From positions 1-43,189 of the forward strand of contig JBHIEG010000016.1 in NCBI GenBank assembly GCA_046760505.1: DNA of 43,189 nt, given 5' to 3'. Numbering within the stretch: the first letter of the stretch is position 1; the number at the start of each line of letters is the position of its first letter. Position numbers and translations under genes: made by a program. This DNA comes from Candidatus Hydrothermarchaeota archaeon. Lineage in GTDB: Archaea > CAYFZR01. Shown here piece after piece: positions 18,392-36,990 of the stretch. The notes beneath the pieces were generated by a model. The model was not told the DNA's origin. It was given only the letters and a program-made list of their open reading frames with translations, and did no database searches.

Positions 18392-19249
18392 GTGAAAGAA
18401 ATGTACAGCGTTAAGGCTCTGATATTTACTTCTCCTACCTGTCTATACTGCGATTTACTTGCCTCAAAATTGATAGAAATTGCAGATAACGCTAAAATAC
18501 CCCTGAAAGTTTACACAGTAGATGTTGAAGAGACTCCAGAAGCAGTCAAGAGATACGACATCAAAACGCTCCCCACTACGTATATAGGTGAAGAGAGATT
18601 TGAAGGATTAAGAGATGATGAAGAAATCCATGAGATCTTGTACACGTCTTTTACCCTACAGCAAGGATCTCCCCTAGACTATGACGAATTTTTAATCTCG
18701 GTATCAAAGCCATACAAATTTTACTGGCACGAAGTAGCGAGTATAATTCAAGAAACCATAAGAAAGGACTTAAAGATGAATATACAGGGTCTTGAAACGA
18801 GAGAAATTGGCGACAAAGTAACTTCGCATCTTTTCAATATTCTGGCACTTTCTATGATCCAATCGATTAATGAGAAGGATGCTGAAAAAGTTTTGAGGAA
18901 ATCCGCAAGTTTTTTAGGCTCTGTTGTTAAGGAGATGCTCGAGGAAGAGGCTACCGAGGCAGTCTTTCAGAAATTGATCGAGATTTCTGGAAAATTGGGT
19001 TTGGGGATATTTGAGTTGGTGAGTCATAATGAGAATATGTTGGTTTTCCGGATTCATGATTGCTTTCTCTGTACAGAATTCAAGATATACGGACATAAAT
19101 TTGAGTCTCCCTACTGCATTTGGATGGGTCAGTATCTAATGACATCAATTTCCGCCAGATTTAAGATTTCAAGATTCAGAGAAACTAAATGTATGGCCAT
19201 GGGAGATCCCTATTGTGAATTTGAATTTTATGCCAGAAAGGAGAGATAG
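18392..19249 (+). CDS. Thioredoxin-V4R domain fusion protein
   Basis: N-terminal FTSPTCLYC...IKTLPT thioredoxin fold; C-terminal V4R motifs GLG, HDCFLC, PYC, ETKCMAMGDPYCEF. Confidence 0.8.
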   Translation: MKEMYSVKALIFTSPTCLYCDLLASKLIEIADNAKIPLKVYTVDVEETPEAVKRYDIKTLPTTYIGEERFEGLRDDEEIHEILYTSFTLQQGSPLDYDEFLISVSKPYKFYWHEVASIIQETIRKDLKMNIQGLETREIGDKVTSHLFNILALSMIQSINEKDAEKVLRKSASFLGSVVKEMLEEEATEAVFQKLIEISGKLGLGIFELVSHNENMLVFRIHDCFLCTEFKIYGHKFESPYCIWMGQYLMTSISARFKISRFRETKCMAMGDPYCEFEFYARKER

Positions 19250-19251
19250 AA

Positions 19252-20765: not shown

Positions 20766-21701
20766 ATGCTTGCAATTCAAACAGAAGGTCTATACAAGGA
20801 ATTTGTCACCGGATTTCTCTCCAAAGACAGAAAAATAGCGATTAGGGATATATCACTGGAAATTGATGGAGATGAAATATTTGGCATTTTGGGTCCGAAT
20901 GGAGCAGGAAAAACAACCTTCATATCCATAATCTCCACGATACTTACACCAGATCGCGGATATGCAAAGGTGTATGGAATAGACGTTGTAAAAGACGCAA
21001 AAAAGGTTAGATCCATCATAAACATGTCCAGCGGATACCCGAATTTTCCTTGGGCCCTTACCGTATACGAAAATCTCAGGTATTTCGCTATGTTATACGG
21101 GCTACACGGTAGCGAGGGAAGGAGGAGAATAGAAGAATGCATAAAACTCTTGGAATTGGAAGATTCAAGAGATGTGAGATTTGATAGACTTTCTACAGGC
21201 ATGAAACAGCGTCTTTCAATAGCCAAATCGCTGTTGAACAATCCTAAACTGCTTTTACTCGACGAACCCACCCTAGGACTTGATCCAGATATAGCAATTA
21301 AAACCAGAAAAATGATCAAAAAAATTCACGAAGATGGAGTATCGATACTGCTTGCCACGCACAACATGAAAGAAGCAGAGGAATTGTGTAGGGAGATAGT
21401 ATTCATAAAAAATGGTACCATCAGGGCAATGGGTTCACCAAAAGAACTAAAAAAAATGATCAAAACCGGAGACCAAATAACCATTAAGTTTGATGGACCT
21501 TTCGATCCGAAGATTTTTCAGGAAATAGTGGGCATATACCATATCAGTCATTCGAAGAAATCACTGAAACTTGTCGTTGATGATGTTGAGACTGTTTTAA
21601 ATCAGATAATTTCCAAGTTAATTGAAAAAAACATTAAAATCAAGGATTTAAAGATTTCTGAACCAGATCTGGAGGATGTTTTTGTTGGACTACTTGAATA
21701 G
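20766..21701 (+). CDS. ABC transporter ATP-binding protein (DrrA/ABC-2 type)
   Basis: GPNGAGKTT, LSTGMKQR, LLLDEPT.GLDP, TH, LEDVF. Confidence 0.93.
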   Translation: MLAIQTEGLYKEFVTGFLSKDRKIAIRDISLEIDGDEIFGILGPNGAGKTTFISIISTILTPDRGYAKVYGIDVVKDAKKVRSIINMSSGYPNFPWALTVYENLRYFAMLYGLHGSEGRRRIEECIKLLELEDSRDVRFDRLSTGMKQRLSIAKSLLNNPKLLLLDEPTLGLDPDIAIKTRKMIKKIHEDGVSILLATHNMKEAEELCREIVFIKNGTIRAMGSPKELKKMIKTGDQITIKFDGPFDPKIFQEIVGIYHISHSKKSLKLVVDDVETVLNQIISKLIEKNIKIKDLKISEPDLEDVFVGLLE

Positions 21702-22482
21702 ATCTTTCACCCATTTCAACGCATTTCTGTACAAGAACTGGATTATGGCGAGAAGGAACTTTTTTACGATATTTGAAATGATGTTCTGGCCTTTCTATGC
21801 CCTGATATCTATAGGTTTAATGACGCTTTTCCTGGAGTTGTCCCCGGAGAAAGTTGCATTTGTATTGATAGGAACCATTGCGCTGAGTACAATTCAAATC
21901 TGTCAGATAGATATAGCATACGTTTTATTGCTAGACGTATGGAGTAAGAGCATAAAACAAACCCTGTTAGCACCTGTAGATGCTTTACATCTTTCCCTTG
22001 GCGGCTGGTTTGTCGGCGTCATTCGCGGATTATTGGTTTTTGTTTTTTTGAGCCTTTTCAGTTACTTTGCCTTTGGATTCGACTTTTTGAGACCGGGAAT
22101 ATTAAGATTGACCATATTTCTTTTTGGTTTATTCATTATGGGTGCTATTGTTGGCAATATTGTTTGCATACTCCTTCTCTTGTTTGGACAGCGTGCAGAA
22201 GTAGCGGCATGGTCCTTGGCTGGTTTGTTCATGCTAATATGCGGGATATATTATCCGTCTTCCATCCTTCCTGCTCCATTGTTCTACCTCTCCCAACTTA
22301 TTCCTCTTACTTATTTTCTCGACTATTTTAGGGTTTTTTATGGAATTGGAAAAGTTATTCCCTTTCATATCCTAAAAGGCTATTTTTTACTCGTGGTATA
22401 TTTTGCCGGGAGCATCCTGGGGTATGAACTTTGCTTGAGAAAGGCAAAAAGGTCAGGCATGCTTCTGAGATTGTCGGAGTGA
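21676..22482 (+). CDS. ABC-2 type transporter permease
   Basis: About six TM helices; GIYYP...LP and PLTY motifs; coupled to the ATPase gene. Confidence 0.9.
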   Translation: MFLLDYLNRSFTHFNAFLYKNWIMARRNFFTIFEMMFWPFYALISIGLMTLFLELSPEKVAFVLIGTIALSTIQICQIDIAYVLLLDVWSKSIKQTLLAPVDALHLSLGGWFVGVIRGLLVFVFLSLFSYFAFGFDFLRPGILRLTIFLFGLFIMGAIVGNIVCILLLLFGQRAEVAAWSLAGLFMLICGIYYPSSILPAPLFYLSQLIPLTYFLDYFRVFYGIGKVIPFHILKGYFLLVVYFAGSILGYELCLRKAKRSGMLLRLSE

Positions 22483-22595
22483 TTGAAATACGAAATTTTT
22501 CTCAAGCGATATTTCGAAATGCGAATCCAACCAATTCTCTCTTATATAATATAAGACGAATAATTAATGAACAAGCAAAGTGTGAGAGGGATGGG

Positions 22596-22925
22596 ATGAT
22601 CGAACTCTCAGATATACTTATAGCATCCAGATTTTCAGGCCTGCTGAAGGTTGTAAACAGCAAAGAAGTGGGCTATCTCGTAATAAGGGGAGACAAGGTG
22701 AAAGCAGCCTATGCCATTCTAGGAGGCGAACTTCACCTTGGCTACGATGCAATCGATATCATCATTTCAATGCTTAAGTGCGATGATGCTAAACTATCGC
22801 TCACACCTCTATCATGCGAAGAGGTGGGCAGATTTGAAGATATGTTCAAAGAAGGATCTTACGACCTGAACATCGAGGAAATTGCGAGCTGGAGAGAGGA
22901 ATTCTTTTCGAAAATAGGCATATAG
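22596..22925 (+). CDS. Hypothetical protein, DUF2226-like
   Basis: FSGLLKV...GYLVIRG..V.AAY.....G.DAI pattern; ATG 22596 after GAGGG. Confidence 0.5.
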   Translation: MIELSDILIASRFSGLLKVVNSKEVGYLVIRGDKVKAAYAILGGELHLGYDAIDIIISMLKCDDAKLSLTPLSCEEVGRFEDMFKEGSYDLNIEEIASWREEFFSKIGI

Positions 22926-22934
22926 TCTTCATCT

Positions 22935-24836
22935 CTACATTCCTAGTTTTTTTCGATTTTTCTCTATATAGCTTAAAATTGCGTCCACCGCTTTAATAGG
23001 ATCTTTTTCAACATTTAAAATTCCACCCGTTAACTCTTTACATTCTTCTGAAAGCAATTTAACAAGATTAGGTGCTCCTGTGACGGTTGGAACAGGATTG
23101 ACATATGTATAGAGACCTAATGCCAAAGCAAATACAGCATCAATGGTGGCTTTTTGCTCCATGTACTCTGGGGCTACCGCGGCTACTGGAAGATCTGGAA
23201 TAGGGACTTCCAGTGCTTTCGATAAAGCGAACAATAAGTCTGCAAGTCTTCCAGTATCAGTACAGGTACCATAGCTGAGAACTGGTGGAATTTTTAGGTT
23301 TTCACAGATTTCTTTAAGACCTTCGCCCGCTAATTCTTTAGCCTCTGGACTACACAGGCCTGCGACTTGCATTGCTCCATTCCCACATCCAAGCGAAAGA
23401 ACAAGAACATCTCGTTTGATAAGTTCCTTTGCCATTCTAATCGTATGCACGTCCTGACCTGAGTCTCTTAGAGTAGAGCATGAAACAAGACCTACAACTC
23501 CTTTTATTTTACCGTCTCTTATTGCATTTAAGAGAGGATCTATCGAGCCGCCTAGAACTTTTAGTATACTCTCTGTGGAGAATCCAACCAGTGCCTCTCT
23601 CTTCGGCAACTTGGTAACAGCCTTAACCGATTTTCTTCGCTCTTTGAAATTATCTATTGCCATGTTCAGAAGTTTTGAAGCCTGTTCCTCTGCTTTTTCA
23701 GGCTCATAATCAACTCTTTCTTCAATACCCTCAAATGAAACCAGTTCGCTTACTGGGAGGAGTTTAAACTTGTATCTCTCTGCATACAAAGGATCGATTT
23801 GCATTGAACAGTTCATATCGCATGCGAAAAGATCAACGCATCCGCTTGCCAGAACCGCTTCCTGAGCGATCCAGTTTCCCGTGAAACCATAGAATACATC
23901 ATCCATTTCCCACCTTTGGATCATTTCCTGACCTGTCTCTATGTTTGCAACAATTCTCAGACCTTTGGCTCCAGCAGCCTTTGCTATTTCCTGCCATTCT
24001 TTTCTTCTGGCTAGTTTTACCATTGCAAAGCCCAGAAAAGGTTCATGACCGTTTGGAAGTACGTTTACATATTCTGGATCAAGAACTCCCAAGTCAACAC
24101 GCATTGAATGGGGTCTCGGTATTCCAAAAAGAATATCTTGACAGTATTCATTGACTATCTGACTCTGATAAGCCATTGCTATGCCAAGGCGCATAGCCTT
24201 CAATGCCAAACTCATGTAGTTACCATCCACATTTGTAAGGCAAGAACTTGCTGAAAGAAGTATCTCGCCATAAATCCCTCCAGGGAAAATATTCAGTTTT
24301 TTCCAAACCTCTTTGCGTTCTTTTGGTGCTAATGCCTCTACAATAAGGCTTGGCTCATAGTATTTTCGGTTAAAATCTGATTCCACAAAATCACAAAGGC
24401 GAATGGCGATTTCCTTCACTGATCCAGATGTGTCTATACCCAGGCGCGCTGCGAAATCCTTCAGTTTATCATATTCTTTAATCTCGAAAGGTGTTTTACC
24501 CTTTGCAGTAGCTCGAAGGGTTCTTATGGTCTGATCTGTGTGGTAGAGATAGGTCGATGCGCCCATTATATTTCTTAGAAGCATCATTCTCATTGCCATG
24601 CCATCCGCGTTAATACCGCACACCCCTTTCTTGTCTTTATTAGCATCTGCACGGCATGGACCGTTGGAGCATAGGTCGCATCTCACTCCAGCCATGCAGA
24701 AAGGACATCTCCTATCAGGATCTCCTCCTAGACCTTGGGCTTCATACCGATCCCAGATATTGTCCATTTTGTCTTCTTTAATACGCTCATACACTCTTAG
24801 AACAGATTCATGGTAAGAAATTCTATCCTTTTCCAT
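22935..24836 (-). CDS. cooS: Ni-CODH/HCP superfamily protein, CooS-V-like (non-canonical C-cluster)
   Basis: CPFC (C-x2-C D site), C-x2-C-x4-C...C B cluster, NGHEP, NIETGQE instead of ICCTGNE, DMNC, VSC, LGCG, GTCTD, EQKA. Confidence 0.9.
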   Translation of the reverse strand: MEKDRISYHESVLRVYERIKEDKMDNIWDRYEAQGLGGDPDRRCPFCMAGVRCDLCSNGPCRADANKDKKGVCGINADGMAMRMMLLRNIMGASTYLYHTDQTIRTLRATAKGKTPFEIKEYDKLKDFAARLGIDTSGSVKEIAIRLCDFVESDFNRKYYEPSLIVEALAPKERKEVWKKLNIFPGGIYGEILLSASSCLTNVDGNYMSLALKAMRLGIAMAYQSQIVNEYCQDILFGIPRPHSMRVDLGVLDPEYVNVLPNGHEPFLGFAMVKLARRKEWQEIAKAAGAKGLRIVANIETGQEMIQRWEMDDVFYGFTGNWIAQEAVLASGCVDLFACDMNCSMQIDPLYAERYKFKLLPVSELVSFEGIEERVDYEPEKAEEQASKLLNMAIDNFKERRKSVKAVTKLPKREALVGFSTESILKVLGGSIDPLLNAIRDGKIKGVVGLVSCSTLRDSGQDVHTIRMAKELIKRDVLVLSLGCGNGAMQVAGLCSPEAKELAGEGLKEICENLKIPPVLSYGTCTDTGRLADLLFALSKALEVPIPDLPVAAVAPEYMEQKATIDAVFALALGLYTYVNPVPTVTGAPNLVKLLSEECKELTGGILNVEKDPIKAVDAILSYIEKNRKKLGM

Positions 24837-24959
24837 ATTTTAAACCCCCAGTCAATATTTCACAGTTTTGATAACTGCAGACTTAATTATTTCACTAAGG
24901 AAAAAATTGTCACAAACACAGATTAATACTTTCATTTGTTAATTACGGCTTTGGTGTCT

Positions 24960-25111
24960 ATGATGTCAAATATAACTTCGGTCGAAGAAGTTAGAGGGCA
25001 ATTTTCCATAACAATACCAAAGGCTATAGCTCTTGCATTGGATATTAAAAAAGGTTCTAAACTTGAAGGGAGTTAATACATGGAGAATTAGTAGTTAGGC
25101 TTTCTAAATAG
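24960..25111 (+). pseudogene. Frameshifted AbrB/SpoVT-family DNA-binding protein
   Basis: MMSNITSVEEVRGQFSITIPKAIALALDIKKGSKLE then premature stop at 25074-25076; adjacent frame continues ELIHGELVVRLSK*; one inserted base near 25068 restores KLE-x-ELIHGELVVR. Confidence 0.7.
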
Positions 25112-25177
25112 CCTCTTTGGAACACAAACTTTTGAAATTGACTACCAATTCAAAAAAATAAAATGAGTTAATTAATA

Positions 25178-25560
25178 CTAACATCGGATAATTGGCTCGA
25201 TCACAAAGTCCATTCTTAAAGCGCACCTTTCTCCCGATCTTATAGGTCTCTTAAATTCTATTCTTATTAAAGCATAGTCATCATAATTTTTAACCAATTT
25301 AATATCTACTTCATCTCCACAAGGGATGTATATATTTGTATAATCATCAAAAGAAGCATATTTACCTCGAATGTCATAATCAGCTCCTTCATATCCAAGA
25401 TTACTTCTGTTCTCTCTATCAAGAAAAGAATGATTATAAAAAACAAATTTTTCATGTTTAGTTTCTATATATCCATCTTTAAGAAAATATAAATCTTCAC
25501 CACAATGATTATATCAAACATTTTATTAGCGTCTTCTGCAATAAAAGCAAGAGTCGCCAA
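25178..25560 (-). pseudogene. Frameshifted AT-rich hypothetical gene remnant
   Basis: GAGGGG RBS and TTG (MATLAFIAEDANKMFD...) terminate early; an overlapping start-less frame of about 110 codons (…GEDLYFLKDGYIETKHEKF…ALRMDFVIEPIIRC*) runs to 25178. Confidence 0.5.
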
Positions 25561-25741
25561 TTTATTACCCCTCAAATTTCTCAGATTCTTAGATATTTAC
25601 TTTTTCTATATGAAAGTGCATCCAATAAAGCCCATTATGCCATAAGAATTAATGATGCTGGGCTTAACTTAAACTAGCTAAGAATTAAAATACAAAAATG
25701 AGTTAAAAATAAAGATAATTAAAAAATTGATGAAAAAATAC

Positions 25742-26923
25742 TTAACTTAGACCCATTGATTCTAAAACTATCTCAGATACATCTCTTACCTTTATATCTG
25801 AACCAGTCTTTTTAACTCCATCTGAGAGGTTCAACCTGCAGAAAGGGCAGCAACTTGCAATCAACTTTGCATCAACAGATATGGCGTCTTCTGCCCGAAT
25901 TTTTGCTAGTTCCATTGCCATTTCGCCGAATTGAGCCCTCATTCCTCCACCAGCGCCGCAGCATCTGGCAAGTTCTCTGTTCTTTTCCATTTCTACAAGT
26001 TCTAAACTTGGTATTGCTTTCAATATCTCTCTGGGCTCATCGTAAATTCCAAGATGCCTTGCCATATGACAGGGATCATGATATGTAACTTTCATGTCAA
26101 TTGGATCTTTAAGATTAACTCTTCCCTCCTCTATTAATTCTAAAATGTATTGCGATGTATGTTTTACTTCAACATCAAAATCTAGACCAAAATTATCTGC
26201 CCATCTGGGATAATCCAAGTAAAGAGTTCTGTAGCAGCCGGCGCAAGATGCAACTATTGTTTCTATTCCTCTATTTTTAAATTCATTTATGTTTTGGGTG
26301 ATTAAATCATATGCAATGTCGAGCTGACCCGTTCTTAGGAATGGAGATCCGCAGCACCATTCGTTTGCTGCCAAGAAATTAAAATCCATTCCAGCGGCAT
26401 GGAATACTTTTGCAGTGCTCTTTGCGAGATCAAGCATTCTATAAGAAGCGGTACAGCCAGCAAAATATAAAACACTGGAATTTTCATTTATCTTTATATT
26501 ATCAGGCATCCAGGCTCCTCTTTTGGCTGGATCTTCATTGTAAGGATTGTGTTTATCCTTTGCAGCGTCTTTTATTCTCAAATGATTTGGCATTGGTCCA
26601 AGTTTCAATCTCACCAGTTCAGATCTAAGTTCTTCCCAGAGTTCTATGGTAGGGATATTAACCTGACAGACTTCGTGACAGTATCCGCATCCGGTACACT
26701 GATATATCCGTTCAACCATTTTATCATCGAATTTAGCCTTTTTATTTAATACATTTTTAAGAAAGAACAATTTTCCCTTGGGGGTAGATGATTCCCACTT
26801 GTCCAGATCATACATGCAGCAAACAGGAACGCAGTACCCGCACTGTGCACAGGCGAAAGTTTCCCAAGACATCTCATCGGATAATTTTAATTTCAAACCT
26901 GCGTACCCTTTCATAGCATTCAT
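25742..26923 (-). CDS. HdrD/GlpC-like Fe-S oxidoreductase (2x[4Fe-4S] plus two CCG domains)
   Basis: CAQCGYCVPVC, CTGCGYCHEVC, YFAGC, WCCGS, SCAGC, YHDPCH, CCGAGGG, CCPFC. Confidence 0.9.
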   Translation of the reverse strand: MNAMKGYAGLKLKLSDEMSWETFACAQCGYCVPVCCMYDLDKWESSTPKGKLFFLKNVLNKKAKFDDKMVERIYQCTGCGYCHEVCQVNIPTIELWEELRSELVRLKLGPMPNHLRIKDAAKDKHNPYNEDPAKRGAWMPDNIKINENSSVLYFAGCTASYRMLDLAKSTAKVFHAAGMDFNFLAANEWCCGSPFLRTGQLDIAYDLITQNINEFKNRGIETIVASCAGCYRTLYLDYPRWADNFGLDFDVEVKHTSQYILELIEEGRVNLKDPIDMKVTYHDPCHMARHLGIYDEPREILKAIPSLELVEMEKNRELARCCGAGGGMRAQFGEMAMELAKIRAEDAISVDAKLIASCCPFCRLNLSDGVKKTGSDIKVRDVSEIVLESMGLS

Positions 26924-26972
26924 CTCTTTCTCTACCTTTCTATTTTATTTATTTAGTTTAGTGTTTATTTTA

Positions 26973-27344
26973 CTAGAACCACATTACTCCATCTACTTCG
27001 AGAGTAAGATCGTTTAAGGTAGCAGCGCCCACGATTATTGCTTCTTCAATGAAATCAGTATCTTTCATGTTTAGCAGATGTTTACTCTGCTCGCATACGT
27101 AAAATTTAACACCCATCTTTGCGGTTTGATCCATCACTTCTTTCAGAGTTGGAAAACTTCCAAGCTTTATCTTCTCTGCTTCTCCTTTTTTCAAAACAGT
27201 TAGACCCATACCCAAGAAATAAATTATTGGTTCCATGCCCATGGCCTTAGCGGTTTGTGCCAGTATAAACGGAGAATATAGTCTTTCTGGTGTGTTTACA
27301 CCGCTTGTTTGCACATACATTATCTTCTTTTTATGTTCAGGCAT
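26973..27344 (-). CDS. DsrE/DsrF-family protein (sulfur carrier / peroxiredoxin-like)
   Basis: PF..A..A.AMG.E..IYF...G...LKKG and GVKFYVCEQS with the conserved Cys. Confidence 0.85.
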   Translation of the reverse strand: MPEHKKKIMYVQTSGVNTPERLYSPFILAQTAKAMGMEPIIYFLGMGLTVLKKGEAEKIKLGSFPTLKEVMDQTAKMGVKFYVCEQSKHLLNMKDTDFIEEAIIVGAATLNDLTLEVDGVMWF

Positions 27345-27406
27345 AAATTATCACTCTCCTTTTTATTAAAAAATTTAAAAAATTGGAAACTGAGTTAAAT
27401 CTTTCT

Positions 27407-29785
27407 TCAGATTTTTTTGTTTCTTATCAATCTCTCTAGATTTGTTGGATCGAATCTTGGATCGTATGCTCTTACCTGTCCGCCTTTAATCTTTTTATCC
27501 TTAACCTCAAATCCATGTTCTTTCTCTAAAATTTCCAAAAGCTCGGATCTCCTTGCAATTGGCAGATCTGTCTCGCTTCTTACGAAAAGATACCAATCCT
27601 CTGGATACTCTCCAAAGTACTTCTTGCTCAGATCTAGGTAATGAGTTAATTTTATCGATCTTCCCGGAGCAGTATCGTTTGGTCTCATTACCATGCGAGC
27701 TGTTTGCACTATTGCCTCTTCTTTGGTCTCTGCTGTATAAATCAAATGCTCAGGTCCGGGCTCGAAGTAATGGAAGGAGCCATCTTTTGCATCTATGATC
27801 TGCCATTCCTCTTTTTTGTCCTTTCTTCCAAGATACATTCTCCTGTACTTAGATCCGTGAGGACCAACTATGACTGGAACTCCAAGTCTATTAAATCCAG
27901 TAGCGATAGCAGCTGCTTTCTGAGAGTAGGCTCCCCATGCGACTCCTACCGCTCCGATTCTATTCAGTATGTAATCCGCGATTTCTTCAAAGTTCGCCCT
28001 AAGATTTCTTTGAGCAAATATGTTTGCTACCTTTATGGCTGCTCCAGCAATATGAGAATTAGAGAGACAGGACCCAGTATTGCATACGTTTCCAGCATCA
28101 AATGCACCCGGAAATCTTTCCCAGACCGTTTTTCCTTCATCGTCCTTGTAGAATGATAGATCCATTGCTGCGCATCCTGATGATACAACTATGTATTTAC
28201 GGGAAGCAAATTCTACCACCATATCATAGAGATCCTTTCTTGATCCAGGATAGTTCGAACATCCTACGTATGCTATTATACCAGGTATAGTGCCTAAGAC
28301 AATTGGGGCTCCAACGTTTCTTATCTCAACGTCTGATATAGGACCTCTTCCAGATCTCACGAAAGATTTCTCTGTTTTAGCATTAGCATGCCAGGCTCCC
28401 TCAATAAGGTTTAGCGGAACTATTCCCTGAGGACATTCAAAAGCACATTTATTGCATCCTATACATCTTTCATGGAGATCAACTAGTTTTGATAGATCTC
28501 CTTTCGAAGCAGCCTCATTTGCTTCATGTATAGGCAAATTGCTTGGACATACTCGCCTACATCTTTCGCATTGAGTACAGGTCGATGCTATTTCCTTGAT
28601 TCTTTCTACGTCAGGAATAACCTTGAATTTCTTTCTCTTTGGAGCAATTGCTTTAGCAACCTTTACTGCTACTTCTCCAACTTTATCTGGATCAGTTATT
28701 AATACTCCGGGTTCTTTTCCTTCAACTAAATCTCTTACTATTTCATCTACTGGGTCATTCGTTCTGTTAGGCAATCCATAGCAGATCTGGTTTGTTGTTG
28801 CAATGACAGGCGCCTTTATTTTTTCTGCCTCCTCCATTACAACGGTTCTTACGCACTGCTCGTCAACAATGATAACATCAGGAACTCCGGTTCTTATGAA
28901 CTTCTGCTGATTTGTTATTGGCCCTATTACCTTTGTCTTCTCATAATACCTTGCCATGTCGTGAGCAGTGCAGCATATTGCACAGAGTTCTATCTCATCT
29001 TCCAATCCATTGTCAATTAGATAGTCAATGATTCCAATTCCTGGCAGTACGTTGTGACCTATTCCAAGTATTACTGGCTTCTCCTTATCAACCGTGCCCA
29101 TTCCTATCTCTACCAAAGGCGCATCGGGATCTGCTTTTGGAAAGCCAAAAGTGGATATCTGCGCTATATCTCCAACTTCCATGGTTAGCAAATCCAACAT
29201 TCCAGCATGAAGTGCCTTAGATTCAAAATCTAAGTAAGATCCTTCCTGTCCTGTGTGAACCGCGGATAAACCGTATGTAATCTGCTTCTCCACATAATCT
29301 AAAACCTCTTCAAGATCTCCAAGAGTGGATGGTTTCTTTCCAACTATCAGTCTCGTTAACGGAGCCTCAACATTTATAGCATCTTTACCGATGTCTATCG
29401 GATAATCCGGACCAAATTTTTTTATGAGTCTCTCCAACATGTCTCTTGAATGCGTGTTGTGAGCAGCTGCACCAATCAAACAGGCTGCAAGAACTATTCT
29501 GGCAGTTTGACTTGTTATATCAAGACCGCATGCTCCCCTTCTTCCTTGAGAGAGATCACATTTTCCCATTGTACAAAGATCACAGAAATCAGTATAGGGT
29601 GCATAGAATGGTTTGTATCTTTTTAGCAATTTAAAGTCCCATTCTCGCAAATCCAAGATATCTGGCTTTGGTGTTGGACCCAATGGCTCTTCCCATGTTT
29701 CCTCTTCTTCTATAATTTTGCCTATGTTGATCGAAATGTTTTCAAGACCCTCTATCTTGAAAACTTTAGTTTTGTTATTTATCAT
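27407..29785 (-). CDS. cdhA: Archaeal CO dehydrogenase alpha subunit (Cdh type), stand-alone
   Basis: EPLGPTP.P...LREWD, HTGQEG, GHNV, ICCTAHD, DEQC, E/F clusters CTQCERCRRVCP and CIGCNKCAFECP, VGCSNYP, SGC, GSCLSNSH, SQKA. Confidence 0.95.
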   Translation of the reverse strand: MINNKTKVFKIEGLENISINIGKIIEEEETWEEPLGPTPKPDILDLREWDFKLLKRYKPFYAPYTDFCDLCTMGKCDLSQGRRGACGLDITSQTARIVLAACLIGAAAHNTHSRDMLERLIKKFGPDYPIDIGKDAINVEAPLTRLIVGKKPSTLGDLEEVLDYVEKQITYGLSAVHTGQEGSYLDFESKALHAGMLDLLTMEVGDIAQISTFGFPKADPDAPLVEIGMGTVDKEKPVILGIGHNVLPGIGIIDYLIDNGLEDEIELCAICCTAHDMARYYEKTKVIGPITNQQKFIRTGVPDVIIVDEQCVRTVVMEEAEKIKAPVIATTNQICYGLPNRTNDPVDEIVRDLVEGKEPGVLITDPDKVGEVAVKVAKAIAPKRKKFKVIPDVERIKEIASTCTQCERCRRVCPSNLPIHEANEAASKGDLSKLVDLHERCIGCNKCAFECPQGIVPLNLIEGAWHANAKTEKSFVRSGRGPISDVEIRNVGAPIVLGTIPGIIAYVGCSNYPGSRKDLYDMVVEFASRKYIVVSSGCAAMDLSFYKDDEGKTVWERFPGAFDAGNVCNTGSCLSNSHIAGAAIKVANIFAQRNLRANFEEIADYILNRIGAVGVAWGAYSQKAAAIATGFNRLGVPVIVGPHGSKYRRMYLGRKDKKEEWQIIDAKDGSFHYFEPGPEHLIYTAETKEEAIVQTARMVMRPNDTAPGRSIKLTHYLDLSKKYFGEYPEDWYLFVRSETDLPIARRSELLEILEKEHGFEVKDKKIKGGQVRAYDPRFDPTNLERLIRNKKI

Positions 29786-29817
29786 TTCAATCCTCCAATA
29801 TAATTCAATTATACATA

Positions 29818-29900
29818 CAATTAGTTATGTATTATCCGAAATATAAAATCTTATGGTATGAAATTCGTCAAAAATTTAATAAATTCTATTGAAAATCGTA
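29818..29900 (-). promoter_or_regulatory. cdhA-dsrE-hdrD promoter: two Ptr2-like boxes, TATA, conserved downstream element
   Basis: Minus strand: TACGATTTTC (29900-29891), TGACGAATTTCATAC (29870-29856), TTTTATAT (29848-29841), TTTCGGATAATA-CA-TAACTAATTG (29841-29818); GGAGG RBS downstream. Confidence 0.7.
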
Positions 29901-30029
29901 AGAACCAATCAATGAAATCAAAAAAATTTTGGCTGATATTTTTTGTCAAAAATTATATATATCTTTATTAGTATTAAATATAACGAAAATAAAAAAAAAT
30001 TATTCAATAATCGCACAAAAAGTGATGCT

Positions 30030-30461
30030 ATGGTTGATCAAAAAGACATGAAAATAATCGAAATCTTGAGAGAGAATTCAAGAAAATCATTTACCGAGAT
30101 AGCAGAAGAATTGGGAGTGAGTGAGTCCACGATTAGAAAAAGAGTTAAGGCCTTGGAAGATGAGGGAATCATTAAAAAGTATACAATAATCGTAGATCCT
30201 GCAAAAATAGGTTACAGAACAGTGGCATTGGTAGGTTTAGACGTTGAACCATCTCATTTTTTAGAGGCAGCGGAGAAGATGACCGAATTCGAGGAGGTAA
30301 AGTGCGTTTCCACATCCACGGGTGACCACATGATAATGACCGAAATATGGGTTAAAGATGGCAAAGAGCTCACAAAGCTGATATCTGAAAAAATTGGAAA
30401 AATAGAGGGCGTAAGTAGAATTTGTCCCGCCATAATATTGGAAAAATTAAAAGAGGTTTAA
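30030..30461 (+). CDS. lrpA: Lrp/AsnC regulator, Ptr2/LrpA orthologue
   Basis: [45 protein letters not shown]...ICPAIILE, the Ptr2/LrpA subfamily signature. Confidence 0.9.
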
Positions 30462-30480
30462 AATAAGTAATTTATCACAT

Positions 30481-31308
30481 TTACTCGGGAACCGCTAACG
30501 GCTTTTCAACTTTGAGTTCCTCTTTCGGAATGGCTTCTCCCTTGACGATATCGTCTATCCTTTCTCTGAAGTCCGGATAGGCAAGTGCCATCAGAGTGGG
30601 CAGCGATATTATCCTTTTGGAAATCTCCACCTCTTTTAAACCCTCTCCAATGTGCAGTTCACAAAACGGACAGGATGTTATTACGAGATCAGCCTGCGTC
30701 TCTTCTATGAAATTGAGTTTTCTTTCCCTGATTTTTTTTGCAAGATCTATTTGAGAGGCTCTAACACCTCCTCCTGCTCCGCAGCAGGCATTAGCCTCCT
30801 CCAATTCAATGTATTCTATACCCGGTATCTGTTCGAGAATCTCTTTGAAACCTTTAAAACAATCAACACCCATGCCTCTTATAAGATGGCACGGAAAGTG
30901 AGCGGTTACCTTAGCATTGATAGGACGAATATTATCTTCTTTAAAGAGCCTTCCCTCCTCGGCTAACTTCATGAAGATCTCCATTATGTGAATCACCTTA
31001 ATTCCACGTTTCTCTGCCTCTTCCGATTTCAGAGTAGATCCGCATCCGGGACATGCGGTAACAATAACGTTTCTGCCTGTTTTTTCCACCTCTCTGAGGT
31101 TGTACAGCAATTGTCTTTTTGCAAGATCCTCGTCCCCAGCCCTGAAGATCGGAGAGCCGCAGCACTGTTCTTTATCTAAAACAATATAGTCGATTCCAAA
31201 TTTATCTAGCAGGAAACGCAGGGCAAACCTTATGATATGCATCCTTCTCGAGGTTATGCACCCCTCAAAAAGGACGACTTTATCAGGTATAGATTCTAAT
31301 TTTTTCAT
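30481..31308 (-). CDS. Stand-alone CCG-domain (HdrB-like) Fe-S protein
   Basis: LFEGC, QCCGSP, ACPGC, HFPCHL, ACCGAGGG, SCPFC; no ferredoxin domain. Confidence 0.88.
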   Translation of the reverse strand: MKKLESIPDKVVLFEGCITSRRMHIIRFALRFLLDKFGIDYIVLDKEQCCGSPIFRAGDEDLAKRQLLYNLREVEKTGRNVIVTACPGCGSTLKSEEAEKRGIKVIHIMEIFMKLAEEGRLFKEDNIRPINAKVTAHFPCHLIRGMGVDCFKGFKEILEQIPGIEYIELEEANACCGAGGGVRASQIDLAKKIRERKLNFIEETQADLVITSCPFCELHIGEGLKEVEISKRIISLPTLMALAYPDFRERIDDIVKGEAIPKEELKVEKPLAVPE

Positions 31309-31319
31309 ATTTTTTGCCT

Positions 31320-31402
31320 CAATTAGTTAAATATTATCCGAAACTTTTATACTTTTAGTATGTATATCGTTATAAATGCAGAGAAACTGTGCGAAAATCG
31401 TA
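31320..31402 (-). promoter_or_regulatory. Promoter of the CCG gene, same architecture as the cdhA promoter
   Basis: Minus strand: TACGATTTTCGC (31402-31391), ACGATATACATAC (31370-31358), TATAAAA (31351-31345), TTTCGGATAATA-TT-TAACTAATTG (31343-31320); the conserved blocks sit at offset +1502 from the cdhA copy. Confidence 0.7.
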
Positions 31403-31448
31403 TTTTAATTATTTGATTTTCTAAAAAAATAAAAGGGAAAAACTTGAA

Positions 31449-33428
31449 TCAGATTCCTAGTGCCTTCCTTTTCTCCTCTATGTGATTTTCTATTATGTTT
31501 GCTGCTTCCCTTGGATCCACTTCCACGGCGAACTTACCTCCAAACAGGCTTTCAGCATCTACTGCGAGCAGTTTCGACACGAGTTCGCTTCCCGCTACAG
31601 GAGGGACCACACCGAGATGTACCAGCAAACCCAATGCCACTGCGCCTGTACCTATGGCTGCTGCCTTTTCCGTAGCCCACTCTGGCGCTGATGCGGCTAC
31701 AGGAAGGTTGCTCAAATCAACATCTAACGCATCTGCTAGGGCTCCGAGCAGTATGAATATCCTTGAATTATCCACGCAGGATCCCATGTGCAAAACTGGC
31801 GGAATGCCTAAAGCCCCGCATATAGCCCTTAAGCCTTCTCCTGCATGTTCTCTGGCTTCAGGTAGCAAAAGTCCCGCTTTCGCTAGGGCATGTCCTGAAC
31901 AGCCTGTGGTCACAACCAGTATATCTCTTTTTATGAGTTCCCTGGCTAAATTTACATGGTTGTAGTCGTGCGTAACCTTTGGATTGTTACAACCGACGAT
32001 ACCAACCGCTCCCTTTATTTTTCCCTCCTTAATCGCATCTAGCAAGGGAGCGAGATCTCCATTTAGCAGGTCCAGTATCGCCTCTACGGAAACGCCGGCT
32101 ATCAGTTTTGATTTCTCATCTATCAATTTTACCTCGTTAGATCTATTTTTGTAATTGTTTATTGCCTCTTTAACTATTTTTTCAGCGACCTCATCTGCCC
32201 TTTCCTCTGAGAATTCAATGTGAATTACGTTTTCATTCTGAGGCATCTTTGCCTCATTCTGAGTTGTTATAAGCCTTGTGTGATAGTGAGAAGCAATATT
32301 CGCCAGACTCGGCATAATGCATTGTACATCCACCGTGAATGCATCCACAACTCCGCTTAAAATAGCCAGTTCCTGCTGTAATGTATTGCCAATCTGGGGA
32401 ATTCCATGTCTTGATAATACCTCGTTTCCGGTGCAGCATATTCCCGCTACCGTAATACCCTCTGCTCCAATCGCCCTAGCCTCTTCCTCCAGCCTCTCGG
32501 ACCACTCCACCACCTTTTCAGATAAAAGCGGAACATGTCCATGGACGATTATGTTTACATTCTCTTCCCTTAGCACGCCGAAATTAGTCTCCGTTTCCAC
32601 TATGGATGGAGTTCCGAAAAGAACGTCCTGGAGCAATGTGGATATCAGGAGCGAGTAAAAATCTGCAAGCCCGCATCTAACCGCATGCAGAATTATATTA
32701 ACTGGATCAGCATCGACTCCCTGCGTAGTCCTATGCATCGCCTCTGCTATCTCTTTATAACCGCTCCTCGGAAATACTCCCAGTTCCTTTAATTTTTCCA
32801 CCCTCTTTTTTGGCGTAAAACTCTCTGCGAATACCATGTAGTCCCTTTCTAATGAACCTACAAAATCTTTCCATGCCTCCAATCCCACTTCTACGGCTAT
32901 TTGTTCTATCTCCTTTCCTTCTGTTTCTATTCCGATTTTTTTTGCTATTTGGAGCAGTTTTTCTTTGTCTGTAATTTCATACGGTGCTTCTTTCTTTCCA
33001 GTCTTCATCAGAGTCTCTGCGACATGAACTCCATGCTCTACATGGGCAGCGGTACCTCCTGCAATGAATCTAAGCAAAGATCTCGCCACCATTAGATCCC
33101 TATCCGCTCCGCATATTCCCTCAGTGGCATTAAACCTGATTCTGTATAATCTGGGCAGGAATGCCGGATCCTCAGGCAATACCCTGCATGGACCGTTTGC
33201 GCAGTTTCTGCAGCAGACTCCAAGAGATCCGAATGGACACCTCACCGCCTCTATTACAGGAAGTACGGCCTCAAATTTCTCAACTCTATCGAATACCGTG
33301 GGAATTTTTTTCGTTCGAGCATATTCCAGCATCTCTTTCGTTGCTGGATCTGCTGTAACACCGTATGTTTTCTTGAACTCTTCTTCTTTCTTCTTTTGCT
33401 GTCTCCATAAAATCTCAGAAATTTCCAT
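31449..33428 (-). CDS. cooS: Anaerobic Ni-CO dehydrogenase catalytic subunit (canonical ligands)
   Basis: CPFGSLGVCCRNCANGPC...GICG, AAHVEH, HGH.P, GICCTGNE, DVQC, VGCNN, TGC, MGSCVDN, EKA. Confidence 0.95.
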   Translation of the reverse strand: MEISEILWRQQKKKEEEFKKTYGVTADPATKEMLEYARTKKIPTVFDRVEKFEAVLPVIEAVRCPFGSLGVCCRNCANGPCRVLPEDPAFLPRLYRIRFNATEGICGADRDLMVARSLLRFIAGGTAAHVEHGVHVAETLMKTGKKEAPYEITDKEKLLQIAKKIGIETEGKEIEQIAVEVGLEAWKDFVGSLERDYMVFAESFTPKKRVEKLKELGVFPRSGYKEIAEAMHRTTQGVDADPVNIILHAVRCGLADFYSLLISTLLQDVLFGTPSIVETETNFGVLREENVNIIVHGHVPLLSEKVVEWSERLEEEARAIGAEGITVAGICCTGNEVLSRHGIPQIGNTLQQELAILSGVVDAFTVDVQCIMPSLANIASHYHTRLITTQNEAKMPQNENVIHIEFSEERADEVAEKIVKEAINNYKNRSNEVKLIDEKSKLIAGVSVEAILDLLNGDLAPLLDAIKEGKIKGAVGIVGCNNPKVTHDYNHVNLARELIKRDILVVTTGCSGHALAKAGLLLPEAREHAGEGLRAICGALGIPPVLHMGSCVDNSRIFILLGALADALDVDLSNLPVAASAPEWATEKAAAIGTGAVALGLLVHLGVVPPVAGSELVSKLLAVDAESLFGGKFAVEVDPREAANIIENHIEEKRKALGI

Positions 33429-33490
33429 TTTTCCACCCAAGAAATATAAGTCAATTATATATATTATTTTTTCACAAAGGTACTGAAAAA

Positions 33491-33958
33491 TTAATCTAAC
33501 TTGCCGTAAACCCTTCTAAAACATCTATTATACCATCTTTTCCCCTTTCTAAGCATTTCAGCATCTCTCTTCTTTTTTTCAACAATATGAGACATCCTCT
33601 CTGAAATACCGAATAGATCCGGTATGTACTCTACCTCCAGCACGGAGTCTATTCCAAGACCTGTTTTTGCCTTGAACATGTCTACAAAAAGAGGATTTGA
33701 ACTCCAGAACACACAGTGAGATCTCTTTATGATTATTTCCCCGTACTTTGCATGATATCTTATCTCATCTATCCTATTCTCTCTGAGGTGGCTCAATAAT
33801 GTGTTCAATTCAAACTCAAAACATTTTTCCTCGAAATTCCTGGTTATCTCTTCATTTCCTTTCTTGTATATGATCCTGTCTGTTTTAGGAGATTTCTCAG
33901 AGAGTTTTTTTACGTCTTCATCCTCTAGTTTTATCTTAAATATGGGTAAATAATCCAT
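33491..33958 (-). CDS. Hypothetical protein, third gene of the thiolase operon
   Basis: ATG 2 nt after the HMGCS-fusion stop; 155 aa; no family recognised. Confidence 0.65.
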   Translation of the reverse strand: MDYLPIFKIKLEDEDVKKLSEKSPKTDRIIYKKGNEEITRNFEEKCFEFELNTLLSHLRENRIDEIRYHAKYGEIIIKRSHCVFWSSNPLFVDMFKAKTGLGIDSVLEVEYIPDLFGISERMSHIVEKKKRDAEMLRKGKRWYNRCFRRVYGKLD

Positions 33959-33960
33959 CT

Positions 33961-35400
33961 CTATCCGTTCTTGGTTTTTCTGTATGTATGGTAGTTTACG
34001 TATATCTTTCTTTTCAGCTGTTCCTGTACTGTTATACCCTCTTTCCATAAGATAGGCTCTTCAGTTCTCCACAGGAAGGCATCGGCCCCTGCGCCAGAGC
34101 CAAATGCTACGTGCAGGATTAGTTCATTGTCCCTGGCATGATCAAAAATGTTTGCGAGTCCGATTAAGGTTGAAGCGGAGTACGCATTCCCTATCCAGTC
34201 AGCAACGAATCCCAGTTTATACTGTTCCCATGTAAAACCAAGTCTCTGAGCCGCTTTCCAGGGGAATTTTCCGTTTGGCTGATGCAAAACAACGTGATCT
34301 ATTTCATGAGGTTCTATGCCAGTTCTTTCCATCAGGTTAATTGCTGCGGCCTGCGTATGCTTAAAGTAGGCTGGATCTCCTGTGAAACCGCCTCCGTGTC
34401 TCGGAAATGGAGAGCCTTCCCTTCTCCAGAAATCCGGAATGTCCGTTGTATAAGGTTCATATGCTTCCAGACTTGCTATCACATCATATTTACCGAATAT
34501 AAATGCGGCTGCACCGCATCCCACCGTGTTGTCTAGAACGTCTCCCTCTTCTGCCTGAGAATTATCTGCTCCCACCACCATTGAGTAGTCGCATTCAAAG
34601 TATCCATTCTCTACCACGCTCAGTGCATAGATAAATCCTCCAGTCGCTGCCTTACAGGCGCATTCCATGTCGTGGGCTTCTACTCTTGGAGTGGCTCCAA
34701 TGGCCTCTGCTACGGTGATTGCACTCGGTTTTACCGCGTAAGGAGGGCTTTCTGAACCAAATCTAATGGATCCAATCTCACTTCCATCTATACAGGCATA
34801 TTTTAAGGCATTTTTTGCTGCATCTACTCCTATCGTGGTGGTATCCTGATCCGGAGCCAGTACAGCCTTTTCTTTAAAACCGGTTTGATTAATAAGAATC
34901 TTTGGATCTTTCTTCATCTCTTTGGCCATTTCCTCCATTTTAATCCTGTATTTCGGTATATGAACCCCATATCCAACTATGCCTGCCCTATCAAACTTTT
35001 TAACTGGATTTTTTTTCTTGAATGATTTACTGCCCTGCTTGGGTCTAAATGCGAGACCGTATTTGATCACACCCTCCTTGGTTTCTCCAAGCCTTCTGAA
35101 CGTTGGCTCCAGTTCCATGCCTATCTCTGGCTCGCGATCCATATCTGTCAGATAGGTAGAAACTTTGGCTCCATCGATTTCGACTATTGCGCAATAATAT
35201 AAGAATCCATTTTCCACCTTTTTGCTGTAAGAATATAAACTCGCATCCTTCCACATCAGGGATTCGTAGATTACTTCTCCTTCCCTTCCCCTGCCTGTAT
35301 CTATGTACCTCGGCGGGATGCTTAATCCTCTAGATTCATCCTTGCTCGCAATGAGCCTGTAGTACTCAGGTATATTTCTCCAAGATTTGGGCAAACTCAT
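33961..35400 (-). CDS. Fusion of N-terminal DUF35 (ChsH2-like OB fold) and hydroxymethylglutaryl-CoA synthase
   Basis: aa 1-~122: WR.IP.YYRL, PPR, YSYS, LTD, IGM..EPTFRRL, G.IKYG..FRP; then GIVGYG..IP.YRI, GSESPPYAVKP, ACKA, DFWRR, HQPNGKFP, IGN.YS, FGSGAG.D. Confidence 0.9.
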   Translation of the reverse strand: MSLPKSWRNIPEYYRLIASKDESRGLSIPPRYIDTGRGREGEVIYESLMWKDASLYSYSKKVENGFLYYCAIVEIDGAKVSTYLTDMDREPEIGMELEPTFRRLGETKEGVIKYGLAFRPKQGSKSFKKKNPVKKFDRAGIVGYGVHIPKYRIKMEEMAKEMKKDPKILINQTGFKEKAVLAPDQDTTTIGVDAAKNALKYACIDGSEIGSIRFGSESPPYAVKPSAITVAEAIGATPRVEAHDMECACKAATGGFIYALSVVENGYFECDYSMVVGADNSQAEEGDVLDNTVGCGAAAFIFGKYDVIASLEAYEPYTTDIPDFWRREGSPFPRHGGGFTGDPAYFKHTQAAAINLMERTGIEPHEIDHVVLHQPNGKFPWKAAQRLGFTWEQYKLGFVADWIGNAYSASTLIGLANIFDHARDNELILHVAFGSGAGADAFLWRTEEPILWKEGITVQEQLKRKIYVNYHTYRKTKNG

Positions 35401-36966: not shown

Positions 36967-36990
36967 TTTGTCGAATATTTTTTCGACAAT
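36967..36990. promoter_or_regulatory. Palindromic site TTTGTC-N12-GACAAT, copy 2 (or hdrB terminator hairpin)
   Basis: TTGTCGAA-TATTTT-TTCGACAA perfect 8-bp arms directly after the hdrB stop. Confidence 0.45.

Follow-up and report, generated by a model that had tools for sequence, protein, structure and literature searches.

What does the alpha subunit of the archaeal complex of carbon monoxide dehydrogenase and acetyl-CoA synthase (CODH/ACS) do when it is encoded apart from the rest of its complex? The question is raised by a 10.5-kb gene island (positions 22935-33428) on contig JBHIEG010000016.1 (C16) of a Candidatus Hydrothermarchaeota archaeon. The window analysed here is the entire 43,189-bp contig, part of a 2.17-Mb genome in 142 contigs that is rated 100% complete with 5.7% contamination. 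In the GTDB-based collection used for comparison, the phylum consists of two genomes only, this one and that of a sister species in the same genus (G001). The minus strand of the island carries genes for a CooS-V-type protein, an HdrD-like protein, a DsrE-family protein, a CdhA (here CdhA2), an HdrB-like protein of 275 amino acids (aa) (here CCG275) and a CooS. The HdrB-like and HdrD-like proteins contain CCG motifs, which are defined as C..CC..CxxC. An original prediction, made from the DNA letters, inferred from this arrangement a possible module in which CooS is joined by CCG275, and CdhA by DsrE and the HdrD-like protein, to couple CO/CO2 redox directly to (hetero)disulfide or persulfide turnover. 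Its account of the gene content was accurate: the canonical CooS, the CdhA, the CooS-V-type protein, the two CCG proteins, the DsrE and a nearby hdrCB pair all lie on the minus strand where it had placed them, and the 42 open reading frames (ORFs) of the window scanned with Pfam and/or NCBIfam include no cdhB, cdhC, cdhD, cdhE, cooC, cooF, hydrogenase or hdrA gene, as it had also claimed. The best reading of the stretch is that it is a lineage-specific patchwork rather than one conserved module. Most of its pairings are recent, species-specific rearrangements, and only the CdhA2-CCG275 link looks deliberately co-regulated. We give a probability of roughly 0.4 to the reading that the locus holds a lineage-specific CdhA2 regulon that would feed electrons into CCG-type Fe-S proteins. 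The features on which this reading depends are the following:

27407-29785, minus strand: cdhA2, encoding a second, orphan CODH/ACS alpha subunit of archaeal type (1194 bits for TIGR00314, cut-off 781).
27630-27847, inside cdhA2: a tract of 218 nt with 100% identity to cdhA1, the paralog of cdhA2.
29819-29900, minus strand: copy 1 of an 82-nt element, 34-115 nt before the cdhA2 start codon.
29943-30461, plus strand: an Lrp/AsnC-family regulator (Pfam HTH_24/AsnC_trans_reg; LrpA 185 bits against a cut-off of 250).
30481-31308, minus strand: CCG275, which is HdrB-like, has both CCG motifs complete and lacks a ferredoxin domain (Pfam CCG, 122 bits).
31321-31402, minus strand: copy 2 of that element, located in the spacer between cooS and CCG275, 13-94 nt ahead of the CCG275 start codon.
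26973-27344, minus strand: a DsrE-family protein of 123 aa with one invariant Cys, C84 in "VCEQS" (PF02635, 64.2 bits against a cut-off of 22.7).
25742-26923, minus strand: end of the cdhA2 row, encoding an HdrD/GlcF/TfrB-like protein in which two CCG motifs accompany an N-terminal 2x[4Fe-4S] domain (Pfam CCG, 130 bits; Fer4_8/17).

CdhA2 matches the solved CdhA 8RIU with 1004 bits, and all cluster motifs are present. An inserted domain predicted to hold two [4Fe-4S] clusters (E and F) is recognised by Fer4 families at residues 391-455; this insert resembles HdrC (32% identity over 76 aa, E 1e-5), and the HdrC of the window in turn matches the cdhA model in the NCBIfam scan. An 82% identical protein, CdhA1, is encoded on contig C6 at the head of a cdhA-cdhB-cdhC-(CooC-like)-cdhD-cdhE-(second CooC-like) operon. 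The genome has one CdhC match, and its lone cdhB-C-D-E set sits behind cdhA1. Since there is a single CdhC match and the C6 operon is complete, CdhA2 is an orphan duplicate. A CdhA is expected to be encoded with cdhB and other subunits of ACDS (acetyl-CoA decarbonylase/synthase); cdhA2 is followed by dsrE. The ratio of nonsynonymous to synonymous substitution rates (dN/dS) between cdhA2 and its sister ortholog is 0.02, and the range for cdhA2, CCG275, Lrp and cooS against their sister orthologs is 0.02-0.07. Such low ratios indicate strong purifying selection; cdhA2 itself is a recent duplicate of the ACS-linked CdhA. The two paralogs share 77% of their nucleotides overall, 85-91% in the sequence flanking the 218-nt tract, where the 3' end has been homogenised, and 65-79% otherwise. 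The tract could reflect either gene conversion or a source of assembly ambiguity or mis-joining; it looks like gene conversion.

How might cdhA2 and CCG275 be connected? The longest direct repeat within positions 22000-34000 pairs the regions just upstream of these two genes. Both sites, in both species, align over an 82-nt block with the shared segments ACGATTTTC, ATTT..ACGA, CATAC and TTCGGATAATA..TAACTAATT. Searching the 2.17-Mb genome with a profile of just the sister's two copies recovers these two sites and no other (E 1e-11 and 9e-7, against 0.74 for the next best match), and a profile of the two cdhA2 copies has the CCG275 copy as its best other match (E 0.003). A 22-nt core with 20 specified bases likewise occurs at two sites only in the genome, even with 3 substitutions allowed; the motif was derived from the same two sites, and the count is therefore one of uniqueness rather than significance. 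By eye, the element appears to contain a TATA-like box rich in A/T, with motifs of the GGAG type behind it. This shared cdhA2/CCG275 upstream element is newly found here. Together, these observations suggest that CCG275 has its own promoter and is not simply read through from cooS, and that its regulation is joint with that of cdhA2. Because the element is unique in the genome, the two units are probably switched together. The Lrp/AsnC gene, omitted by the original prediction, splits CCG275 from cdhA2 on the opposite strand, divergent from cdhA2 and convergent with CCG275, and its product is plausibly the regulator of both units; the sister ortholog is 91% identical and occupies the same position. 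A separate A/T-rich direct repeat of 26 nt with 85% identity (33441-33468 and 29797-29822) lies just upstream of the cooS and cdhA2 starts, and may be a chance feature of A/T-rich spacers.

The sister species shows which parts of the island have been kept. A 4.2-kb contig of G001 (C48) carries CCG275 (84% identical), Lrp (91%) and CdhA2 (93%, residues 1-629) in the same order. The match between this contig and the window begins at 31420, a point 29 nt beyond the stop codon of cooS, and takes in copy 2 of the element; the 550 nt upstream are unrelated. At the other end, the contig stops at cdhA2 codon 629, just before the 218-nt tract, and only one CdhA C-terminus has been assembled in G001. 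The cooS ortholog of G001 (90%) is on another contig, alone on its strand, flanked on one side by a BtuFCD-like ATP-binding cassette (ABC) transporter with an epimerase and on the other by genes whose orthologs are contiguous on C4 here. Hence the cooS-HdrB-like pairing of the original prediction is absent from the only other species of the phylum, and cooS is a recent arrival at its position in the window. The DsrE ortholog (87%) is also elsewhere in G001, beside a different HdrD-like paralog in divergent orientation, and an ortholog of the window HdrD-like gene was not found there, so the predicted cdhA-dsrE-HdrD-like pairing does not extend to the sister genome either. Only the CCG275-Lrp-cdhA2 order is kept in both species.

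Where did the other genes come from? CCG275 has the cysteines of both CCG motifs (17, 49/50, 86 and 89; 140, 175/176, 213 and 216), which are invariant in 29 family members, and falls below the HdrB equivalog TIGR03288 (101.6 bits against a cut-off of 345). Among the window ORFs scanned, no HdrC or ferredoxin gene is adjacent to it. Its 74% identical paralog on C21 lies behind a gene for a 180-aa HdrC-like ferredoxin, and both this paralog and its sister ortholog have the HdrC-like gene upstream and three ORFs without a family downstream. The sequence relationship indicates that CCG275 is a recent paralog that came out of an HdrC-like/CCG operon. The four closest relatives outside the genus (45-49% identity) each have an ORF of 174-183 aa directly upstream. 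In both species (C21 40-3504 here and C82 9569-13577 in G001), an HdrC-like gene and a CCG gene are followed by ORFs of 123, 225 and 242 aa that have no Pfam or NCBIfam family and then by a NapH-like membrane ferredoxin; ORFs of comparable size also stand behind the CCG genes of the relatives with 45-49% identity (loci L032-L035). This HdrC-like/CCG/three-ORF row is an undescribed conserved gene set.

The DsrE-family protein has a similar history. Cys84 is present in 7 of 7 aligned sequences and is presumably, as inferred from the family, a persulfide carrier. The protein is not a DsrE2 equivalog (NF047629, 41.7 bits against a cut-off of 210), and no second DsrE-family ORF that could serve as a DsrF/H or TusB/C partner is present among the 42 window ORFs scanned. 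An 83% identical paralog on C9 is followed by genes for a cysteine desulfurase and IscU, and the same dsrE-iscS(-iscU) row occurs at 16 of 19 loci with 51-66% identity. By sequence, the window gene is a recent duplicate of the DsrE gene that precedes iscS-iscU. The row itself (C9 8043-9980 and loci L174-L192), which on C9 is preceded by a gene for a glutaredoxin/ferredoxin-thioredoxin-reductase/DUF3422 fusion, suggests that a sulfur carrier of the DsrE type works alongside cysteine desulfurase when Fe-S clusters are assembled.

The HdrD-like protein has both the ferredoxin domain and the two CCG motifs expected of an HdrD, and its best NCBIfam match is TfrB (249 bits against a cut-off of 385). 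No HdrE cytochrome b partner is encoded among the island ORFs scanned, and the host has no mcrA, so the protein does not qualify as the HdrD of an HdrDE complex. On C23, genes for a GlcD-type flavin adenine dinucleotide (FAD) oxidase and a split cytochrome b precede the gene of a 75% identical paralog. A quick maximum-likelihood tree places the window protein in a clade with two GlcD-adjacent sequences, the C23 paralog and that of locus L242, with 100% support in the Shimodaira-Hasegawa-like approximate likelihood ratio test (SH-aLRT), on a longer branch (0.19 against 0.05-0.07). A locus with a GlcD-like gene was found for 41 of the 80 metagenomic HdrD-like relatives (27-73% identity); the window copy has no adjacent FAD oxidase of its own, and dsrE and cdhA2 are upstream. 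The relationship identifies the gene as a recent paralog drawn from GlcD-type FAD-dehydrogenase operons. Kinship of a CCG protein with the partners of lactate or glycolate dehydrogenases is the outcome that the original prediction had itself named as refuting it. CCG proteins are unusually abundant in this genome for an organism without mcrA or dsrA, neither of which was found in an assembly rated 100% complete. For example, contig C7 has at least four HdrD-like paralogs and one HdrA homolog within 30 kb (~26-56 kb).

What mechanism could these parts support? The conserved core would be two transcription units flanking the Lrp gene, one consisting of cdhA2 (joined in this species by dsrE and the HdrD/GlcF-like gene) and the other of CCG275. 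The accessory genes were borrowed from Fe-S cluster biogenesis (DsrE), from FAD-linked 2-hydroxyacid dehydrogenases (the HdrD-like protein) and from an HdrC/HdrB-like pair (CCG275). CdhA2 would work apart from acetyl-CoA synthase as a CO/CO2 redox enzyme, with electrons passing in or out through its HdrC-like two-cluster (E/F) domain to CCG275 and/or the HdrD-like protein. Since the E/F insert resembles HdrC, it could replace the ferredoxin partner that CCG275 lacks, and would then stand in for it within the enzyme. Candidate acceptors are a thiol or persulfide on DsrE, or a quinone-linked route like that of the paralogous dehydrogenase with cytochrome b. CooS and the CooS-V-type protein would be independent single genes that lie beside the core only in this species, that is, bystanders. 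Predicted contact between the enzyme and its partner was addressed by co-folding CdhA2 (residues 36-759) with CCG275, which gave no answer (score 0.00) and is neither for nor against binding. Any disulfide or persulfide chemistry of the island is putative.

Several observations weigh against a CdhA2 regulon. First, cdhB is directly downstream of cdhA at 28 of the 28 closest CdhA loci outside the genus. Second, the gene neighbourhoods that the original prediction invoked, CODH with CCG and DsrE genes, are missing elsewhere: a CODH or DsrE gene is found within 6 kb at 0/80 CCG275-family loci on genome contigs and in the locus of 0/80 HdrD-like relatives, and a CODH or CCG gene is found within 1.5 kb at 0/28 DsrE-like loci from 401 sampled archaeal genomes. 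One instance speaks for that prediction and for the CdhA2 regulon alike, a cooF-cooS-hdrB-like row in an unrelated archaeon. Given these counts and the 28 loci in which cdhB follows CdhA, there is no independent recurrence of the core. Third, dsrE and the HdrD-like gene are not at the G001 cdhA2 locus, where the contig ends inside cdhA2, and the three-gene row is thus known from one species only. Fourth, a profile of the two CCG275 copies of the element ranks the cdhA2 copy third, with an E of 2.3 that is not significant. Fifth, oligo-T runs in the cdhA2-dsrE spacer mean that co-transcription is not assured. Sixth, the public sequencing runs that hold 25700-33500 are four DNA runs from one study, with no RNA run among them. 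Finally, the join between the two halves of the island crosses the 218-nt exact repeat and is unbridged by four contig sets; the linkage of the halves comes from the original assembly and, indirectly, from the sister's contig C30, which is colinear with C6 through cdhA1-cdhB-cdhC.

Is the island as assembled nonetheless real? Contigs from the four DNA runs, which are labelled hydrothermal vent metagenome, bridge 21500-27659 (from the CooS-V-type gene through the HdrD-like gene and dsrE into the 3' end of cdhA) and 29105-35000 (the 5' part of cdhA2, Lrp, CCG275, cooS and orf185, an ORF of 185 aa). All of them break inside cdhA2, at 27630-29126. Because the contigs span both segments, both junctions of interest are real. 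Contamination or mis-binning as the source of the paralogs was ruled out, both paralog sets being present in the sister genome too. A single operon was also ruled out, by the opposite-strand Lrp gene, by a 905-bp gap before the CooS-V-type gene and by the upstream element that CCG275 has for itself.

The alternative that survives best is one of juxtaposition only, which we regard as possible though on the unlikely side. On this account, the region is prone to rearrangement, the proteins work in the types of system from which they came, and CdhA2 is a spare ACDS alpha subunit that exchanges no electrons with its neighbours. In its favour, cooS, dsrE, the HdrD-like gene and the CooS-V-type gene, four of the island's seven, either lie at other places in the sister genome or were not found there, and each accessory gene has a paralog (74-83% identical) in a different, widely conserved context. 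The homogenised 3' end of cdhA2 is as expected if CdhA1 and CdhA2 bind the same partners, and the branch of the window HdrD-like protein, ~3 times that of its paralog (0.19 against 0.05), fits relaxed constraint. What juxtaposition finds hard to explain without common regulation is an upstream element unique in the genome yet conserved in two species. Strong purifying selection on cdhA2, CCG275 and Lrp speaks against it as well, as do the tight spacers of the cdhA2 row, where 62 nt separate cdhA2 from dsrE, 49 nt separate dsrE from the HdrD-like gene, and both spacers have GGAG-like motifs.

A second alternative, which we consider improbable, is that CdhA2 is a regulatory or CO-sensing isoform, or else a condition-specific alpha subunit, and that DsrE and the CCG proteins assemble or repair its Fe-S and Ni-Fe-S clusters. 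The adjoining Lrp regulator would suit such a role, as would the tie of the DsrE orthogroup to the sulfur-mobilising iscS-iscU genes of Fe-S assembly at 16 of 19 loci. We know of no role of a CCG protein in cluster maturation, and this counts against the idea; so does the retention in CdhA2 of every catalytic and cluster motif, with 1004 bits against a solved catalytic CdhA. There is a precedent for the sensing part. According to PMC4652020, an orphan CdhA was suggested as a CO sensor by Matschiavelli et al. 2012.

A narrower version of the CdhA2 proposal is that the locus encodes a ferredoxin-independent CO:persulfide/disulfide oxidoreductase, in which CdhA2 would act with CCG275 and/or the HdrD-like protein, electrons would move from the Ni-Fe-S C-cluster straight through the HdrC-like E/F domain to the non-cubane clusters of an HdrB-like subunit, and an Isc-derived DsrE would carry the sulfur. 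It is a good deal more specific, and we think it quite unlikely.

The weakest alternative is the two-pair model of the original prediction as written, which involves cooS (31449-33428, minus strand: a canonical monofunctional Ni,Fe-CODH; TIGR01702, 702.6 bits against a cut-off of 478). An ATG at 33428 fits the 659-aa sister ortholog as the start codon; a TTG at 33440 is the alternative. Full-length alignments to the solved CODH-IV (6ELQ) and Thermococcus CODH (6T7J) score 630 bits each, and in them the protein keeps all C-cluster and B/D-cluster motifs (VHGHVP, GICCTGNE, VQCIMP, VGCNN, TTGCS and HMGSCVDNSR). The residues within these motifs that we take to be the six C-cluster ligands are one His and five Cys. 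For one of the Cys, Cys295, the assignment as a canonical CODH ligand is documented (PMC9311411). The 28 closest CooS loci outside the genus often have a CooF-like gene (19/28) or a CooC-like gene (13/28) as a neighbour; neither is at either cooS locus of the genus, and a CooF homolog was not found in the genome with the query used. A CCG gene lies within 1.5 kb of cooS at one of these 28 loci, in an unrelated archaeon (G025, contig C32, 5465-9031), where cooF (172 aa), cooS (640 aa) and an HdrB-like two-CCG gene (289 aa) follow one another on the same strand, an independent case of CODH-CCG adjacency in which the HdrB-like protein belongs to a different CCG subfamily (25% identity to CCG275). 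The two-pair model can thus point to adjacent genes on the same strand, to a cooS-CCG275 junction confirmed by the contigs of four runs, to a CooS without its usual CooF and CooC neighbours and to the G025 row, but it is very unlikely, given that cooS is not beside CCG275 in the sister species, that the conserved element upstream of CCG275 is shared with cdhA2 and not with cooS, that a CCG gene is missing within 1.5 kb at 27 of the 28 related CooS loci, and that the HdrD-like family partners FAD dehydrogenases for which no disulfide substrate is known. The original prediction is partly supported. What remains of it is its gene content, its CODH types and, in revised form, a link between CdhA2 and CCG275; for the pairing of CooS with CCG275 and the unit of CdhA, DsrE and HdrD-like protein, the refuting conditions that it had named mostly turn out against it.

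How does a CdhA2 regulon compare with known systems? The locus presents an orphan CdhA with CCG-type neighbours, and both CO-driven heterodisulfide reduction and orphan CdhA are already known. A close likeness is CdhA3 of Methanosarcina acetivorans, also an extra cdhA without cdhB-E beside complete cdh operon(s) (PMC4652020; bioRxiv 10.1101/2025.09.14.676152). It is the third clade-A CODH of that organism, is not linked to ACS genes and has been suggested as a CO sensor (PMC4652020). The window orphan differs in being followed by DsrE and HdrD/GlcF-like genes, in sharing an upstream element with a CCG gene and in having a host without mcrA. In Methanosarcina, CO can drive heterodisulfide reduction, and HdrD1 cross-links to ACDS in an HdrD1-ACDS-Mer complex, two precedents that favour the proposed CdhA2-CCG link; electrons from the ACDS CODH reach a CCG-domain Hdr via ferredoxin and membranes (PMC4169405). 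The genes of that chain are unlinked and its substrate is CoM-S-S-CoB, whereas the window genes are adjacent, belong to a non-methanogen and include an HdrD-like protein of a GlcD-partner family. In bacteria, Wood-Ljungdahl HdrABC/MvhD rows similarly place HdrB-type CCG genes beside Ni-CODH (PMC6344411). Those rows have HdrA, HdrC, MvhD and ACS; in contrast, the window has no hdrA, no ACS and no HdrC next to its CCG genes. Across 2457 Ni-CODH loci, Inoue et al. 2019 report COG2048 (HdrB-type) in 36, a significant enrichment, mostly in Wood-Ljungdahl clusters; COG0247 (HdrD/GlpC type) occurs at 10 loci and DsrE (COG1553) at 1, neither of them enriched (PMC6344411). The GlcD/GlcF-type (D-lactate/glycolate) FAD dehydrogenases have in common with the window an HdrD-like Fe-S subunit of the same clade, but neighbouring genes for FAD oxidase and cytochrome b have been lost from the window copy, whose place is behind cdhA2 and dsrE. 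A literature search for CdhA with HdrD and DsrE found nothing. The CdhA-DsrE-HdrD-like row is not described in the accessible portions of PMC6344411 or of the main text of bioRxiv 10.1101/2025.09.14.676152, although the "FeS" neighbour category of the preprint may hide CCG proteins.

The third CODH-related gene of the island is 22935-24836, minus strand: a CooS-V-type (clade D) hybrid-cluster protein with a CODH fold (PF03063, 490 bits; 7B7Q, 715 bits). CODH clade calls here follow the best solved-structure matches together with the clade labels of bioRxiv 10.1101/2025.09.14.676152. The claim of three CODH types holds up in that CooS, CdhA and this protein match TIGR01702, TIGR00314 and 7B7Q, respectively. 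The diagnostic features of CooS-V are a Cys295-to-Glu change and an extra Cys for a bridging [2Fe-2S] cluster (PMC9311411). Like the 7B7Q protein of Carboxydothermus hydrogenoformans, also of clade D, the window protein has Glu at the position of the canonical Cys295 ligand ("ANIETGQE" against "GSIESGQE" of 7B7Q), and its N-terminal "RCPFCMAGVRCDLCSNGPCR" keeps every Cys of 7B7Q. The one CooS-V studied, that of C. hydrogenoformans, does not oxidise CO or reduce CO2 and slowly reduces hydroxylamine (PMC9311411); by analogy, the product of the window gene is probably not a CO dehydrogenase. It differs from that protein in being in an archaeal host, 0.9 kb from a CdhA operon, and in having a function that is predicted. 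The gene appears to be a single-gene unit, with the 905-bp gap upstream and a convergent ABC-transporter gene downstream, and no CooS-V-type gene was found in G001. It stands alone, as do 64% of clade D genes; that most clade D genes do so, and that clade A genes co-occur in one genome with clade D and E/F genes, has already been described (bioRxiv 10.1101/2025.09.14.676152). The gap (24837-25741) has no ORF longer than 50 aa and no Rfam family at gathering score, and there is no tRNA in the window. A 46-aa ORF in the gap (24936-25076, plus strand), divergent from the CooS-V-type gene, scores 23.3 bits for a MazE/AbrB-type family, short of the cut-off of 24.7, and possibly encodes a small regulator. 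On the other side of the CooS-V-type gene, 18392-20727 holds a thioredoxin-fold/V4R-domain protein and then a KaiC-like double ATPase, upstream of the ABC-2 transporter that converges on it.

Beyond cooS lie the following two genes:

36990-37859, minus strand: hdrB (TIGR03288, 326 bits against an equivalog cut-off of 345).
37864-38340, minus strand: hdrC (TIGR03290, 128 bits against an equivalog cut-off of 160).

The pair is 3.55 kb from cooS, with thiolase and 3-hydroxy-3-methylglutaryl (HMG)-CoA synthase genes in between. The distance of 3.5 kb given by the original prediction is therefore right, and no link of the pair to the island is shown. In the sulfur-oxidising-type sHdr system, hdrA, hdrC1B1/C2B2 and genes for lipoate-binding proteins form one cluster. 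The window, which has no hdrA, does not hold such a system; no search for lipoate-binding genes was made. Elsewhere in the genome, where the original prediction had suggested looking for the missing partners, there are the cdhB-C-D-E set and the CooC-like genes of C6 and three HdrA homologs (C4, C7 and C8, the C8 copy in an hdrACB row); mcrA is not among the genes found. Two other parts of the window deserve a remark. At 33491-35400, the longest HMG-CoA-synthase ORF (479 aa) overlaps orf185, which has no family, through an N-terminal extension of 137 aa; the true start of the HMG-CoA-synthase ORF is probably internal. At 40486-41975, two nucleotidyltransferase (NTP_transf_2) ORFs and a HEPN-domain ORF are arranged like an MNT/HEPN toxin-antitoxin system.

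What would a CdhA2 regulon mean for the biology of these archaea? The case consists of one genome and part of a second, and is a lead rather than a discovery. The locus shows how a module may originate: parts of Fe-S biogenesis, lactate-type dehydrogenase and Hdr-like systems have been duplicated and moved under what looks like a shared promoter element. If the CdhA2-CCG link is real, the alpha subunit of CODH would be detachable from acetyl-CoA synthase and attachable to Fe-S modules of the heterodisulfide-reductase type, and CO/CO2 redox would have a new outlet for its electrons in a hydrothermal-vent phylum that has barely been sampled. If the more specific CO:persulfide proposal were true, a vent archaeon that is not a methanogen would use CO to power the release of sulfide or thiol redox homeostasis.

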